Source: Candidatus Hydrogenedentota bacterium
GTDB lineage: Bacteria > Hydrogenedentota > Hydrogenedentia > Hydrogenedentales > SLHB01
Reading direction: 5' to 3'
NCBI GenBank assembly: GCA_963668025.2
Contig: CAXXTH010000023.1
Location: forward strand, 1-64,000
Length of the DNA: 64,000 bases
Shown: one piece after another, positions 6,200 to 10,991 of the stretch
Layout: every line of letters starts with the position of its first letter
How positions within the stretch are numbered: the first letter of the stretch is position 1
Position numbers and translations under genes: made by a program
The notes under the pieces: model-generated
The model's database searches: none
Told to the model about the DNA's origin: nothing
What the model saw: only the letters and a program-made list of their open reading frames with translations

Positions 6200-7081
6200 T
6201 TATTCACTGGCTTGTTTGCGGGCGAGGATGGCGTCGAAGTCCGATTTCGTTCCTGAATAGAACAAGCGGTTGTTCTCGGGGCCGAACCAGCCGATGCCCC
6301 ATTGGTAGTTGTTCGAGCCAGGGTACACGGCGTTTTCCTGTGGCCCCCAGCCCCATTTTTCGCTCGTTACGTGGCCATCGCACCAGATGACATTGATGCG
6401 GCCGTTGTGGCGGAAATGGAGGCTGGGCGAGGTAAGGCCCCAGTCTTCGTTGCCGGTGGGATTATCGGACGATGGATAATACGGCGGTTCGAGGAAGCCA
6501 TACTCGATGATGTAGCCATCCTGTGCGAGGGCGGAGTCGGCGAACATGATGGTTTCAGAAGGATTGCCCACTTCGCTGTCGCGCGTGGCGCTCTTGGATG
6601 CGGGCGTGGTGTAGGTTTTCGTGTCCATTGGATAGTCATTCGCCCGGAACCGCGTGCTGCCGATATAGGCCATATTGTACCCATAACCACCTGTGCCGGA
6701 CTCGAAGGCGTTTGGAGCCTGGTTTTTAGACATGTACTCCGTAAACACGGGGCAGGCCTTCACGCGCTTATCCGGGAGATACTCCGCCAATAATCCCTTA
6801 TCGGGATCGAATTCATCGTCGGCGCGTTCGCGCGCGCCATGCCACCGGGTGAGGCCGCCGTTGGTGGCATAGATGTCAGGCGCGGCGGGCACATAATGGC
6901 CTTGATGTTCCGAGGCATACATAGTGTTGGCGAGATAGAGCTGGCGGAGGTTGCTGATGCATTGCACGGAAAGGGCCTGCTGGCGGGCGCGGCCCAGCGC
7001 GGGCAGGAGTATCGCCGCAAGAACGGCGATGATTCCGATGACCACCAGCAACTCGATCAGCGTAAAGCCTCGGTTTCTCAT
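6200..7081 (-). CDS. prepilin-type N-terminal cleavage/methylation protein with H-X9-DG C-terminal motif (DUF1559-like)
   Basis: [31 protein letters not shown]......CISNLRQL at the N-terminus and [16 protein letters not shown] near the C-terminus. The ATG at 7081 overlaps the upstream TGA (ATGA). Confidence 0.92.
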
Positions 7082-8910
7082 GACTGGCATCTCCGGCGGC
7101 TGCCAAGCAAGCGCATTGCACCCAGGGTGAATAGCAGCAATGCGCAGCCTGGCGCCGCTAATGGCAGCGCGACATAGTCGGCAGGCAAGTACGTTCCCTC
7201 GCCTACACGTTCCGCCTGGCCCGCATCCGTGTAGGTCTGGACCGTTACCGCTGAAAGGAGGCCTTCGGCCTCGACGGTGAACCTCACTTGCCCATCCTCC
7301 ACGGCAGCCTGATATCCAGGCGCATCCGGGTCCGCGTCCGCCGAAGTAATGGTTCCACCTGCAACAACAATGGTCACGAACACGCCATCGGCCACCATAT
7401 GGCCGAAGCGGTCTTGCAGGATGGTGGACTCGAATTGCAGGACGGCGGGGGCCGAGCCCGTGACTTGCACCACCCAGCCCACCGGGGCCACGGGTGGTTC
7501 GGTGATGGGGTTGGTTTCGCCGATACCTGCCGTGGATGCCAATACAAACACCCCCGGATAATCGGTCTGGAACGTCACCTGGTTTGCATCCGCGTCGAGA
7601 ACGATTGACGCAATGCCGTCTTGGGTGTATGCGGCTCCGTCGAAACGATACGGCTGCAATCCCGCTTCATCCAGCCCCGTGATCTCGGCCGGGGCGTACA
7701 CGAGCGCCACTTCCGCCGGAGCGATTTGCATCGCCGGAAAATCCGCGACATCGGAGACAATCTCCAGCACGGTTCCGCTCAGGAGAAGCCCCGCATTGGG
7801 CAGGCTGCCCTCGGGCGCGGATGGCGTAAGCATGTCCACGGTGGTTTCCCGGGGCAGCTCCGCATCGCGCGTTCCGGCGGCATAGAGTGCCAGCCTATCG
7901 CCCCGTGAATCATGCGCTTCACCTAATACGTTCGTGGCAGGCACCCCCCCCGCCCATGAAGGGATTTCTAGGGGTAGAACCGTGTTCTCGGAACGGAGGG
8001 GATCCGTGCCCGCCACGCGCGTTTCATAAGCATCCAATAGGCCGTCGCCGTCCGTGTCCACATCCGGGGCTACATCCGCGACGGCGTCGACCTCGGGCGA
8101 CATATATCCCACGACGCCCGTATTGCGCAGGACAAAAGTAGAAAAGCGTATGGAATCAAATTGAGATAAATCCGCCGGTTCGCCCGCCTGGTCCACCGCC
8201 CAGGCGATATCGAAAGCGTCGCCCCCGGCGCATGGTTCGCTCAGGCCCACCGTAAGAGGATCATCCGGGCGCAAATGATAATCCAGATAATGGGGTAGAT
8301 TCGGCGTCGTATCGCCATAACCCCAGTTATATTCAATCGTATCGTCTACTGCGTCGTCATAGGCGTTTGGATTCTTGATATTGCCCGCGAGGTAATACGG
8401 ATTCGTGGCGGAATTGCTCTGGCCCGTAGGTTCGGAGATTGTAGGGAGCGAACCGTCCGCGCCATATTGGTACGCCCGGCTGCCGGGGATCAGATACCAA
8501 GGATCATCCGCCAAACCGTTGCCGTTCACATCTTGGCTGATCTCGATTAGTGCAGGCTCCTGGAAGCGGACTTGCGGATTGTTGCCCGTCCAGAAAGCGT
8601 TGCCGAACACGATGCAATCAAGCCCCATGGGGTTTTCGGGGTCGTCCTCGACGGGGGTGTTAAATTTAAGCACGAGCTGGCCGCGCGCCGTATCACTAAT
8701 CGAGCCAAGACTCACGATACTGGTGGTATTGCCGTAGTTCGTGCCCGCGCCTTCCGGCGCACCGATCGCTACCGACGCGTCGGCATATGGGCCTGAAGGC
8801 ATGTTTGGCCCTGATACATAACTCAACACTTCATCCGCCCACGGATCGTCCACCGCATGCGCGCATGCCGCAAGAAGCATGAAGCATAACATCCGAGCTA
8901 GAACGTGCAT
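7078..8910 (-). CDS. secreted cell-surface protein with a BtuH-like (putative cobalamin-binding) N-terminal domain and a C-terminal membrane anchor
   Basis: Signal peptide, then motifs [41 protein letters not shown] and [11 protein letters not shown]. From memory these match Bacteroides B12-locus surface proteins (BtuH type). It also has a DTDGDGLLD Ca-binding-like motif and a C-terminal LPL+TM+RRR tail, and lies downstream of B12 riboswitches. Confidence 0.65.
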
Positions 8911-9132
8911 AGCCGCCTTTCCGTTTGGCCGAAGAAAATCACATTAAAAATAGCCACAACATTCGCAAGAAACACGAATGAACTAAGGGATATGAGAGCC
9001 TGAGGCATGGCCGGGAAAGCCATGCATCGAGAAGCGTATTTCTTCTTCTCTCTTTTCTTGCGATTCAAGATCATCTGGTGTCTCCTGCGCCTCTTGTGGC
9101 TAGTTTTTGGTATTCAATGCGAGCGCCCTGCC

Positions 9133-9171
9133 GTTTGGCCGAAGGCGATGTAAAACCGCCTTCGGCCAAAC
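9133..9171 (-). terminator. 15-bp perfect intercistronic hairpin (terminator or mRNA stabiliser)
   Basis: GTTTGGCCGAAGGCG-N9-CGCCTTCGGCCAAAC, 14 nt after the stop of 9185-10219. There is no U-tract. Confidence 0.45.
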
Positions 9172-9184
9172 ACAAACCAATCCA

Positions 9185-10219
9185 TCACGAACGCCGCATG
9201 CGCGACGCCACACCCGCCGCCAGCATGGCGAATCCCGCCAGCACGGCGTTCACGGGCACGGGTGGGGCGTAATCGGCATCAAATGTCCACACGCTTCCCA
9301 CATCGGATTGCGCCAATATTTCATCGGTATATGGGTTGTAAATCGCCGAATAATAAGGCTGGGTTCCCACGGGATCCAGGGTCCGGATGATTTCACCCGT
9401 CGTGTTCGAGACGATCTGAATGCCGCCGGGCAGGCCATATCCCGCCGAACCGGAGATGATCAGATTGCCCGAGGACGTGATGCCCGAGATGCCGTTCGTA
9501 AAATATTCGCCCGCCGAGCCAATCTGCACGCCGTCCGTGTTCCAATCCAGTTGAGTCGAATCCTGGAACGCCGCGATCACGGCCGCGACGGAAAACACCC
9601 GCAGTTCGCGCGTGTTTGCATCAATGACATACAGCTTGTCGTTCGCCAAATCGGCATACACCAAGCCAGAATAAGAGCCGGAAGGCTTGTCGATCACCAC
9701 GGATTTGGAGCAAGGCATGGACAACACCGTCCGGGGTTTCGCATCCGCGCTCTTCGAGCCGGAGGCATCGACGACCACGAGTTCCGTGCCGCTCCAGTCA
9801 TCCTTGCCGCGATCGATGGCCAGCAGGCTATTCGAGAGAAATGCGCCTCCGAATTGCGTGGGCACGGCGATTTCGCACGATGCCTCGTAATCCACGGGAT
9901 TCGCGAGGTCCAGCCAATAGGCCTTCGTGTAGTATCCTGGTCCGAGCAAAGCCTTCGCGCCATCCGGCGTAATGGCGATAAATCCCGGATCGCCTAAATA
10001 TCCGGTTGCAATGGCGTCCCAGGAATCCGAGCCTACGGCGTTTTGCCGGTAGACGGTTTCACCATTCCACACAAGGTATTGGCCGCTCGATAATGCGGCC
10101 CCGACTACGGAATAGGAGTTGGCAGCTTTCTGCGGGAAGTTTTGTAATTGGGTGTAATCCGCGGCGGCGGGCAGACATGCCATCGCGATATACGCAAAAC
10201 TAAAGACTACATACTTCAT
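9185..10219 (-). CDS. secreted beta-propeller-like surface protein with a PEP-CTERM-like C-terminal sorting tail
   Basis: Signal peptide (MKYVVFSFAYIAMACLPAAA), propeller-type segments (IAITPDGAKALL, DKLYVIDANTRELRVF) and C-terminal APPVPV+hydrophobic helix+RMRRS. It is the first gene after the riboswitches, with SD AAGGGGA. Confidence 0.65.
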   Translation of the reverse strand: MKYVVFSFAYIAMACLPAAADYTQLQNFPQKAANSYSVVGAALSSGQYLVWNGETVYRQNAVGSDSWDAIATGYLGDPGFIAITPDGAKALLGPGYYTKAYWLDLANPVDYEASCEIAVPTQFGGAFLSNSLLAIDRGKDDWSGTELVVVDASGSKSADAKPRTVLSMPCSKSVVIDKPSGSYSGLVYADLANDKLYVIDANTRELRVFSVAAVIAAFQDSTQLDWNTDGVQIGSAGEYFTNGISGITSSGNLIISGSAGYGLPGGIQIVSNTTGEIIRTLDPVGTQPYYSAIYNPYTDEILAQSDVGSVWTFDADYAPPVPVNAVLAGFAMLAAGVASRMRRS

Positions 10220-10319: not shown

Positions 10320-10507
10320 ACTGCAACTTTTCCGCGAAGTCGCTGTTTGATTAGGTGCGTATGGGCAGGTCTTCTGGCTTCCGGTATGGTTCTACTCGCC
10401 GCGCCTTCCCATCCTTTCGAGGACAGTGGCTCGAGTGCGGTTTTCGTAGCCGGTCACAGCAGCGCGTCTGCGGCGGATTCGCACCGCCTTCCCTTTGCCC
10501 ACGCGCG
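10320..10507 (-). ncRNA. cobalamin riboswitch, proximal copy
   Basis: Minus strand reads GGGCA-AAGGGAA-GGCGGTGCGAATCCGCC-GCAG..CTGCTGTGA..GCCACTG..GGGAAGGCG..AGCCAGAAGACCTGCCC (B12 box). A downstream hairpin loop TTCGC is complementary to L5 GCGAA. Confidence 0.92.
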
Positions 10508-10629
10508 GGTAATACTTATGCCGCTCACCTCCTCTCACAAATGTTCCGCCGCAAAGCAGACATGCATCAGTCTTGCTAGTGCGACGCGGAGGTGAAACGA
10601 GGGGCAGGAATGTTGGCGTGTCCTGTGCT

Positions 10630-10817
10630 CATTACAACCTTTCCGCGAAGTTGCAACTACTTTGTTTTGTGTTTGGGCAGGTCTTCTGGCTTCCGGCATG
10701 CTCTACTGGCCGCGCCTTCCCATCCTTTCGAGGACAGTGGCTCGAGTGCGGTTTTCGTAGCCGGTCACAGCAGCGCGTCTGCGGCGGATTCGCACCGCCT
10801 TCCCTTTGCCCAAACAC
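10630..10817 (-). ncRNA. cobalamin riboswitch, distal copy
   Basis: Same core repeated about 312 bp upstream. P1 is GTGTTTGGGCA/TGCCCAAACAC, and it has its own CAACTTCGCGGAAAGGTTG kissing-loop hairpin. Confidence 0.92.
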
Positions 10818-10839
10818 GCTGATCATGAATACAAGCAAG

Positions 10840-10869
10840 ATGTTGGCATAGGCGGCCATCGCTTGTCAA
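10840..10869 (-). promoter_or_regulatory. putative sigma70 promoter for the riboswitch leader
   Basis: TTGACA (10869-10864), an 18-nt spacer ending in TGn, then CAACAT (10845-10840), about 20 nt upstream of the distal riboswitch P1. Confidence 0.4.
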
Positions 10870-10991
10870 ACCTTTGAACCCAGGATGATGGCCTCATAAG
10901 GCACAAGAGATACAGAAACAAATAGGAAGTTTTTTCCCCGTTTTTTTGCGCATTCTGTGGCAGCCAGGCAACCGGTTTATTAGCATACAAG

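Follow-up and report, generated by a model that had tools for sequence, protein, structure and literature searches.

To our knowledge, the passage of vitamin B12 (cobalamin) across the outer membrane is known only through the TonB-dependent receptor BtuB and the elaborations of it found in Bacteroides. In systems of the Escherichia coli type, BtuB and TonB are combined with the importer BtuFCD, and the envelope step is controlled by a B12 riboswitch. Here, we analysed a locus of a Candidatus Hydrogenedentota bacterium (assembly GCA_963668025.2, contig CAXXTH010000023.1). The window, that is, the whole stretch of DNA analysed, comprises 64,000 nucleotides (nt; positions 1 to 64,000 of the contig), and the locus within it consists of two cobalamin riboswitches followed by three genes, referred to as g1 (a propeller-like protein), g2 (a protein with a BtuH-type domain) and g3 (a prepilin-type protein). 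It resembles the E. coli type in the riboswitch control of an envelope step and in the presence of a BtuFCD-like importer in the genome, and it differs in that the switch governs a putative binder and a pilin-like protein instead of BtuB and in that no TonB parts were found. On balance, and with modest confidence, we regard the locus as a B12-repressed cobamide-acquisition module of a diderm bacterium without TonB-dependent transport.

The closest described proteins are those of Bacteroides, where BtuG caps BtuB. The BtuH domain is a B12 binder of picomolar affinity (PMC10404256, PMC8941943), and BtuG2 is a seven-bladed propeller (PMC10404256). With the surface B12-binding lipoproteins BtuH2 and BtuG1 of Bacteroides thetaiotaomicron (PDB 7BIZ and 8BLW; in BtuG1, the H-domain), g2 shares a homologous globular domain (28–29% identity over about 198 residues), control by a B12 riboswitch, the position of the binding domain at the far end of an immunoglobulin (Ig)-like or repeat stalk, away from the anchor, and the Asn and Phe of the contact to the phosphate and lower ligand. 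The polarity is reversed, since the putative binder of g2 is N-terminal and its transmembrane anchor C-terminal, whereas BtuH2 has an N-terminal lipid anchor. The g2 protein also differs in that several contact residues are not kept, in belonging to another phylum, and in its partners: no BtuB or BtuG was found in the genome, and the invariable companion is a predicted pseudopilin, often fused to it.

Riboswitches and genes all lie on the minus strand of the window, according to the open reading frame (ORF) list and Rfam. A preceding analysis of the letters alone (hereafter, the sequence-only reading) had proposed two cobalamin riboswitches ahead of three co-oriented genes, and this layout was upheld. 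Aptamer 1, the upstream member of the pair (10659..10828, minus strand), matched RF00174 with 96.4 bits (E 8.6e-23) and aptamer 2, the downstream member (10347..10547, minus strand), with 93.7 bits (E 5.1e-22), against a gathering score of 31.5, both covariance-model matches spanning positions 1–189 of the 189 in the model. Because the aptamer cores are nearly identical, differing at about 4 of 140 aligned columns, the pair (10225–10850, minus strand) is read from the alignment of the two units as a recent tandem duplication; the 5' flanks are unlike. A similar short hairpin motif, CTTCGCGGAAA, follows each aptamer unit in this region. The co-oriented ORFs behind the riboswitches run in the order g1, g2, g3, and none of them encodes a TonB-dependent receptor, an ABC transporter or an isoenzyme, as had been stated. 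A search of the whole 6.15-Mb genome returned these two RF00174 matches only, and a permissive scan of the 12 kb around the BtuFCD-like genes found none; by these searches, g1, g2 and g3 are the genome's sole B12-switched genes. The source genome is a 24-contig assembly, 93.75% complete, and the absences reported for this organism rest on that one assembly. Ligand-dependent repression of the downstream genes is predicted from the riboswitch matches.

The 296-residue protein encoded by g3 (6200..7090, minus strand) is a prepilin-type H-X9-DG (DUF1559-like) protein whose reading frame overlaps that of g2 at the latter's end. The first ATG of g3 is at 7090, 13 nt within g2, and a second in-frame ATG (7081) forms ATGA with the TGA stop of g2, in agreement with the overlap noted earlier. 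The N-terminus carries the class III signal G|FTLIE, with the methylation motif above cut-offs (PF07963, 32.9 bits vs 21.2; TIGR02532, 32 bits vs 16.3), and the H-X9-DG motif was likewise recognized (TIGR04294, 21.8 bits vs a cut-off of 19); these matches bear out the earlier assignment to proteins of the prepilin-peptidase substrate type. DUF1559 itself (PF07596, also named SBP_bac_10) reached 18.3 bits, under its gathering score of 23.3. PF07596 is precomputed on several fused relatives of g3, and in the nearest ESM Atlas clusters 82–100% of the members carry N_methyl and 17–30% SBP_bac_10. The family profile matched solved pilins and GspG in the PDB over the N-terminal helix only. Across 18 sequences, two Cys, Gly85, Arg87, Gly135-Tyr136-Gly137, Asn139, His225-Phe226-Arg227-His228 and Asp238-Gly239-His240 are invariant, His228, Asp238 and Gly239 being those of the H-X9-DG motif. 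With the DUF1559/H-X9-DG proteins of Planctomycetota, Verrucomicrobiota and Lentisphaerota, g3 shares the class III signal, the motif and a length of about 300 residues. Those proteins occur as dozens to hundreds of paralogues, whereas g3 is a single match in 108 of the 117 genomes of its phylum that carry it and is tied to a riboswitch and to a partner of a known ligand-binding type. In its own genome, a tblastn search with g3 gave 14 segments, of which those other than g3 cover N-terminal stretches of 54–183 residues only.

The phylum set comprised 135 genomes, the relatives being mostly titled Candidatus Hydrogenedentota; most are fragmented metagenome bins, and related genomes are not independent samples. 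RF00174 was detected in 128 of the 135, g2 in 94 and g3 in 117, with 53–75% identity to the g3 studied here. Arrangements in cis were counted by a coordinate script on 150 of the 223 riboswitch matches and are therefore lower bounds: at least 68 of the 117 genomes have a riboswitch upstream of g3, on its contig and strand and no more than 7 kb away, and in at least 19 of these it stands directly before g3, at 153–314 nt. When 19 further g3 loci were scanned, a riboswitch was rightly placed in 17, directly in 6, and in the two loci without one the contig ended only 1147 and 179 nt away. Combined, a riboswitch lies in cis upstream of g3 in at least 85 of the 117 genomes, directly in 25. Among the 25 g3-bearing genomes without a g2 match, at least 21 have the riboswitch directly before g3. 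Where g2 is missing, the switch governs g3 alone, as in genome G082, in which the next gene is recA.

Where both g2 and g3 are present, g3 follows g2 in 76 of 92 genomes, and most of the others break at contig ends. In all 20 fetched loci, g3 comes immediately after g2, either fused to it (7 loci) or as a separate gene (13 loci), and g1 homologues precede g2 in 10. Of the 117 g3 matches, 25 fall in open frames of at least 750 residues. The fused proteins consist, in order, of a signal peptide, the BtuH-like domain, a stalk, a transmembrane helix, an Arg-rich loop, the G|FTLIE helix and the H-X9-DG domain, an order that is, as predicted from these segments, the topology that prepilin peptidase needs. 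A separate promoter for the prepilin gene, which would have spoken against the proposed operon, is argued against by this fusion of g2 and g3 into one frame in many relatives. Judged by these comparisons, g3 is the core of the B12-regulated module, as its most conserved part and the one most tightly linked to the switch. It is unlikely to be a passenger, because it is more conserved than g2, keeps the switch even without g2 and has a frame that overlaps or is fused with that of g2.

The association extends beyond the phylum. A pattern scan with one genome per species yielded 80 loci, preselected as g3-like because the patterns were g3 motifs, and 31 of them lay outside the phylum by title, with g3 relatives of 37–46% identity over nearly the full length. 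In Planctomycetota, a riboswitch occurred within 1.5 kb upstream of the g3 relative in 8 of 21 loci, and in 9 of the 21 the gene immediately upstream was BtuH-like, 8 of these 9 having no riboswitch in the flank; weak BtuH-like matches lay upstream in 3 other loci. On these counts, the riboswitch–prepilin linkage that had been anticipated for other genomes is conserved far beyond chance in the phylum and in Planctomycetota. None of the outcomes that the sequence-only reading had named as refuting it turned up.

The second gene, g2 (7078..8910, minus strand), encodes 610 residues with a signal peptide, a predicted BtuH-type cobamide-binding domain (residues 19–281; 8068..8856, minus strand; assigned by profile and fold), a bacterial TSP3 repeat (residues 285–306; 7993..8058, minus strand; PF18884, 25.7 bits vs a cut-off of 25), a stalk of about 270 residues, a hydrophobic helix serving as C-terminal transmembrane anchor, and an Arg-rich tail. 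Direct Pfam and NCBIfam scans of g2 returned the TSP3 repeat and a weak lipoprotein match only, and the link to BtuH surfaced only when a profile built from 45 homologues was run against the solved structures of the PDB. This profile matched just two kinds of solved protein, exactly on the H-domain residues: BtuG1 of B. thetaiotaomicron with its C-terminal H-domain (8blw_B, E 2.5e-19) and BtuH2 with B12 bound (7biz_A, E 1.3e-13). An AlphaFold2 model of residues 1–290 (predicted local distance difference test score, pLDDT, 81.7) gave three top Foldseek matches that were all BtuH or BtuG1 (probability 1.00, E 1.4e-11 to 1.2e-9), the next match standing at E 3.8e-3. VIA-align placed the model on BtuH/BtuG1 chains with Z 17.7 (root-mean-square deviation, rmsd, 3.8 Å over 198 residues, 28% identity) and Z 17.6 over 199 residues, followed by an entry at Z 10.2. 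By profile and model, the N-terminal domain of g2 is thus clearly a homologue of the Bacteroides BtuH B12-binding domain, which confirms the BtuH-like domain proposed for the second gene, and g2 would be expected to bind B12.

BtuH2 contacts B12 through Gln333, Asn399, Phe401, His476, Tyr510, Trp511, Trp577 and Leu578, of which Asn399 and Phe401 touch the phosphate and lower ligand (PMC8941943). These two align with Asn104 of g2, invariant in the alignment, and with Phe106 of its GNAF motif. The signal peptide lacks Cys in 5 of 7 g2 homologues read; it contains Cys in the homologues P0014 and P0002, in neither case in a lipobox before the mature start, and the anchor of g2 homologues is the C-terminal transmembrane helix rather than an N-terminal lipoprotein anchor. 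A lipid anchor and a genomic tie to btuB or btuG characterize the Bacteroides proteins and are not what defines the domain. An equation of BtuH with DUF4465 was rejected, DUF4465 being BtuJ (PMC13398666). Prediction of a complex of g2 (residues 20–610) with g3 (residues 8–296), run without controls, scored 0.01 against a mark of 0.32 and says nothing either way.

The first gene, g1 (9185..10219, minus strand), encodes a secreted beta-propeller protein of 344 residues. Its AlphaFold2 model (pLDDT 84.1) has six blades, and the best structural matches are six-bladed propellers of the Pizza6 and NHL type (Z 22–23, rmsd 2.9 Å over 244 residues). The propeller-like nature ascribed to the first gene therefore holds, and g1 parallels BtuG in being a beta-propeller under B12-riboswitch control, but the parallel does not extend to the seven blades. 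A relation of g1 to seven-bladed BtuG appears unlikely: the model has six blades and showed no specific likeness to BtuG, which was absent from its listed fold matches, and at a threshold of E 1 the family profile hit none of the solved chains. Besides itself, g1 has 16 homologues in a large protein collection, and in 16 of the 17 aligned sequences the C-terminus is a hydrophobic helix, in most of them with basic residues after it; g1 itself has such a helix and a basic tail. For g1 and g2, no B12-related family was found in Pfam or NCBIfam, even at E 10. No NCBIfam model of a PEP-CTERM/exosortase-type sorting domain matched either protein at E 0.1 or better, and their C-termini show the general sorting layout only (a Pro-containing motif, a transmembrane helix and a basic tail); the genome has one exosortase gene.

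In four other loci (L031, L032, L034 and L035, of genomes G006, G053, G003 and G055), a stand-alone g1 homologue lies directly behind a second, shorter riboswitch of about 165–170 nt. The propeller thus appears to be B12-regulated in its own right, since a riboswitch controls it outside the g2–g3 operon. The next gene after the stand-alone g1 is alaS in G053 and G055. In the complete genome G034 (L009:971-4342), the first gene behind the riboswitch encodes an Ig-domain-rich protein of 1123 residues with a similar C-terminal anchor and without a propeller, and in the f7 genomes (L008, L010–L012) this place is taken by a g1 that is duplicated or of double length. What stands at the head of the operon varies, and g2–g3 is constant.

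The host genome sets the context for such a module. It contains 15 matches to B12-binding domains, one of them in a frame of 1214 residues, and a BtuF/D/C-like operon on contig C10 with 46, 52 and 59% identity to a riboswitch-controlled one. CobS was not found in it, nor were CobU and CobT by tblastn, and the cell is apparently unable, as predicted from these absences, to finish making B12. The outer-membrane marker Omp85/BamA is encoded, together with one prepilin peptidase, 7 secretin matches and 17 matches to T2SSE-family ATPases, 7 of about 600 residues and 9 of about 360–520 residues. The genome has no match to the TonB-dependent barrel, Plug or TonB_C. Given B12-binding domains and BtuFCD without CobS, CobU, CobT or a TonB system, the cell apparently uses B12 and can import it across the inner membrane without a recognizable outer-membrane route. 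Elsewhere in the phylum, the genes behind riboswitches include those for BtuFCD, CobU/T/S and ribonucleotide reductase, which form a classical regulon of uptake and sparing.

Under the acquisition reading, low intracellular B12 would let the tandem riboswitches permit expression of the three envelope proteins. The g2 protein would capture cobamides through its N-terminal BtuH-type domain, held on a stalk by the C-terminal membrane anchor, and g1 would be a membrane-anchored propeller, a variable accessory and probably a second binder. As the conserved core, g3 would act as a dedicated pseudopilin, produced at a constant ratio to g2 by way of the overlapping or fused frames, cleaved by prepilin peptidase and used by one of the cell's many type II secretion system (T2SS)- or type IV pilus-like machines. 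In this role it would link capture to the movement of B12 through the envelope, with BtuFCD importing the vitamin afterwards. Processing and polymerisation of g3, and its part in crossing the outer membrane, are predicted from these features. A pseudopilus-based outer-membrane step seems the most economical, considering that g3 has a pilin-type signal, that secretins and ATPases are numerous and that a TonB system is apparently lacking.

A more specific form of this proposal, which we hold only tentatively, is that g3 and its orthologues are B12-specific pseudopilins of TonB-independent import, in which a short retractile fibre or piston carries the cobamide through a secretin to the periplasm, where BtuFCD would take it up. 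The sequence-only reading had likewise suggested that the pilin-like protein may take the transporter's place, for example as a B12-binding minor pilin on a retractile machine. The machine would be of the T2SS or type IV pilus-like kind, the cobamide would be held by g3 or by the co-made BtuH-type protein, and the fused forms would act as polyprotein precursors, with an ectodomain of 600–700 residues in the part of a 'leader peptide' cut by prepilin peptidase. Type IV competence pili and pseudopili of the ComGC/PilA type, which bring DNA through a secretin by retraction, offer a works-like analogy only: by analogy, a pilin-type subunit, secretins and PilT-sized ATPases could carry cargo inward. 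They differ in that we know of no vitamin or small-molecule cargo for machines of the competence-pilus type, and retraction, fibre formation and cargo binding are hypothetical for g3.

Several observations weigh against the reading of the locus as an acquisition module. Cobamide binding, processing, polymerisation and transport by the module's proteins are all predictions. Of the eight BtuH2 contacts, only Asn399 and Phe401 are clearly kept in g2: the residue opposite Trp577 is Val, Tyr510 and Trp511 map to a variable, gapped loop (residues 203–229, pLDDT below 50), and His476 and Gln333 lie outside the aligned stretches. By profile search against the PDB, the globular domain of g3 has no solved relative. 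Across the 20 loci, no gene downstream of g3 is conserved, the largest neighbour group reaching 5 of 20; no pilus or secretion genes lie beside the module, and the annotated neighbours are not transport genes. The 7 Verrucomicrobiota, 2 Kiritimatiellia and 1 Lentisphaerota loci all lacked a riboswitch within 1.5 kb upstream. Within the operon, the strong hairpin between g1 and g2 could attenuate read-through. Plug domains occur in 41 of the 135 phylum genomes, a Plug-domain protein being present in 26 of the 94 g2-bearing and 34 of the 117 g3-bearing genomes, and in G078 a riboswitch stands directly before one.

The module thus coexists with TonB-dependent uptake in part of the phylum. The BtuB independence put forward by the sequence-only reading finds support in this genome, where no barrel, Plug or TonB was found, but with 26 of 94 g2-bearing genomes encoding a Plug-domain protein, the module cannot strictly be called a substitute for TonB-dependent transport. 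No Plug domain was found in 68 of the 94 g2-bearing and 83 of the 117 g3-bearing genomes. A TonB-dependent receptor about 2 kb from g2–g3 in G006 was considered as a linked BtuB and rejected, as a histidine kinase gene intervenes. The cluster (L144:192-5097, G006:C12) consists of the receptor, a YfiR-like gene of the TOL_0243 family and the histidine kinase, a sensor; TOL_0243 was its sole match above cut-off, and all receptor matches, TonB-B12 included, stayed below curated cut-offs. Given this clustering of the receptor with a YfiR-like gene and a sensor kinase, some of the Plug-domain matches in the phylum may be signalling-type receptors, not nutrient transporters.

Other roles for g3 must be weighed alongside uptake. 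One, which we consider unlikely, is that of a secretion or display adaptor: a pseudopilin that helps a T2SS-like machine export or position g2 and g1, neither binding nor carrying B12, which would cross the outer membrane by some other route. T2SS pseudopili push folded proteins through secretins, and the 7 secretin matches and many GspE-type ATPases would supply such machines; g2 and g3 are either co-produced or synthesized as a single precursor, and the C-terminal anchors of g1 and g2 would otherwise hold both at the inner membrane. An adaptor without cargo is not expected under B12 control, however, and switch-led g3 genes without g2 therefore count against it: a riboswitch controls g3 with no binder gene between in the 25 genomes described above, among them the one in which recA comes next, and the switch is kept in at least 21 of the 25 genomes that have g3 and no g2 match, with the reservation that a cargo may be encoded elsewhere.

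It is likewise doubtful that g3 is a non-polymerising periplasmic B12-binding protein, in which the pilin-type signal would serve only as an inner-membrane anchor and which would hold B12 or hand it to BtuF–BtuCD, the outer membrane being crossed passively or via porins. The Pfam name of DUF1559, SBP_bac_10, would fit such a protein, as would the tight and independent linkage of g3 to the riboswitch and the presence of BtuFCD, and the two invariant Cys, several His and the aromatic motifs RWHG, GGYGYN and HFRH could form a pocket. At about 1.4 kDa, however, B12 is too large for general porins, and with no TonB system found, this proposal leaves the outer-membrane step unexplained; moreover, the helix of g3 forms a complete class III signal that includes Glu5, as is typical of assembling subunits, and the genome already encodes a BtuF-like binding protein. 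We consider it very improbable that the module serves not uptake but a B12-responsive surface or sequestration role, withholding cobamides or remodelling the envelope with the pilin as a structural element. The surface B12 binders of Bacteroides hold the vitamin almost irreversibly (PMC10404256), and the operon has no transporter gene. Such a role fits poorly with an organism that needs B12 and apparently cannot make it, in which g1–g3 are the only B12-switched genes and whose relatives place BtuFCD, CobUTS and ribonucleotide reductase, an uptake and sparing regulon, under the same type of switch.

Within the operon, the hairpin mentioned above has a 17-bp stem and lies right after the g1 stop, in the 274-nt spacer between g1 and g2 (9133..9171, minus strand), without a T-run. 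RNA folding of 9200–8905 (minus strand) gave a z score of −6.7 against shuffles. The terminator scan did not call this hairpin as a terminator and called no clear intrinsic terminator; promoter and terminator scans yielded no more sites than in shuffles and none between g2 and g3. The 3' arm of the hairpin, CTTCGGCCAAACGG, recurs just 5' of the g2 start codon (window 8905–9200, minus strand), and this repetition makes possible an alternative pairing of the two copies that masks or frees the ribosome-binding site of g2.

Upstream of the operon lies a DDE transposase gene (PF01609; 11198–12580, minus strand), which adjoins a gene for a leucine-rich-repeat protein of 983 residues (12841–15792, plus strand). 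Downstream of g3, about 750 nt contain no ORF of at least 60 residues on the minus strand, followed by an ORF of 422 residues without a Pfam match (4175–5443, plus strand) and a gene for a SIR2_2-domain protein (2797–4119, plus strand). The region that holds the locus may be a mobile or rearranged one.

Elsewhere in the phylum, tandem aptamers also precede g3 in genomes G103, G104 and G105. In G103 and G105 (L023:4333-5415 and L024:1879-3957), genes for DUF3500, LPG_synthase_TM and an esterase lie downstream of the tandem riboswitches, after g3 in G105; the genus to which these genomes belong has a Plug-domain protein in 6 of 6 genomes and g2 in none of the 6. Two genomes that branch deeply within the phylum, G001 and G002 (L036 and L037), have a remote g3-like gene (E 1e-33) behind the riboswitch and, after that gene, one for a secreted protein of 442 or 452 residues. 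These proteins were rejected as g2, the match to the g2 profile being confined to the TSP3 repeat, and may be a different binder in the same slot.

Judged by titles and abstracts, we found no link of prepilin-type or DUF1559 proteins to B12 in the literature. With the H-domain homology of g2, the BtuH family reaches well past Bacteroidota and the three species of Firmicutes reported in PMC8941943. In an organism that needs B12 and has an outer membrane, with no TonB system found, the switched genes encode a BtuH-type binder homologue and a pilin-like protein, plus g1, and g3 is the most conserved and most tightly switch-linked part of the predicted module in two phyla. A precursor in which a prepilin-peptidase site joins a large ectodomain to a prepilin is unusual in design, and the uncharacterized DUF1559/H-X9-DG family gains a concrete and testable candidate ligand, with a possible new envelope route for a large vitamin. 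If the import of B12 by pseudopilins were true, it would provide the first ligand for this very large family and would suggest that the DUF1559/H-X9-DG proteins as a whole may be nutrient-capturing pilins.

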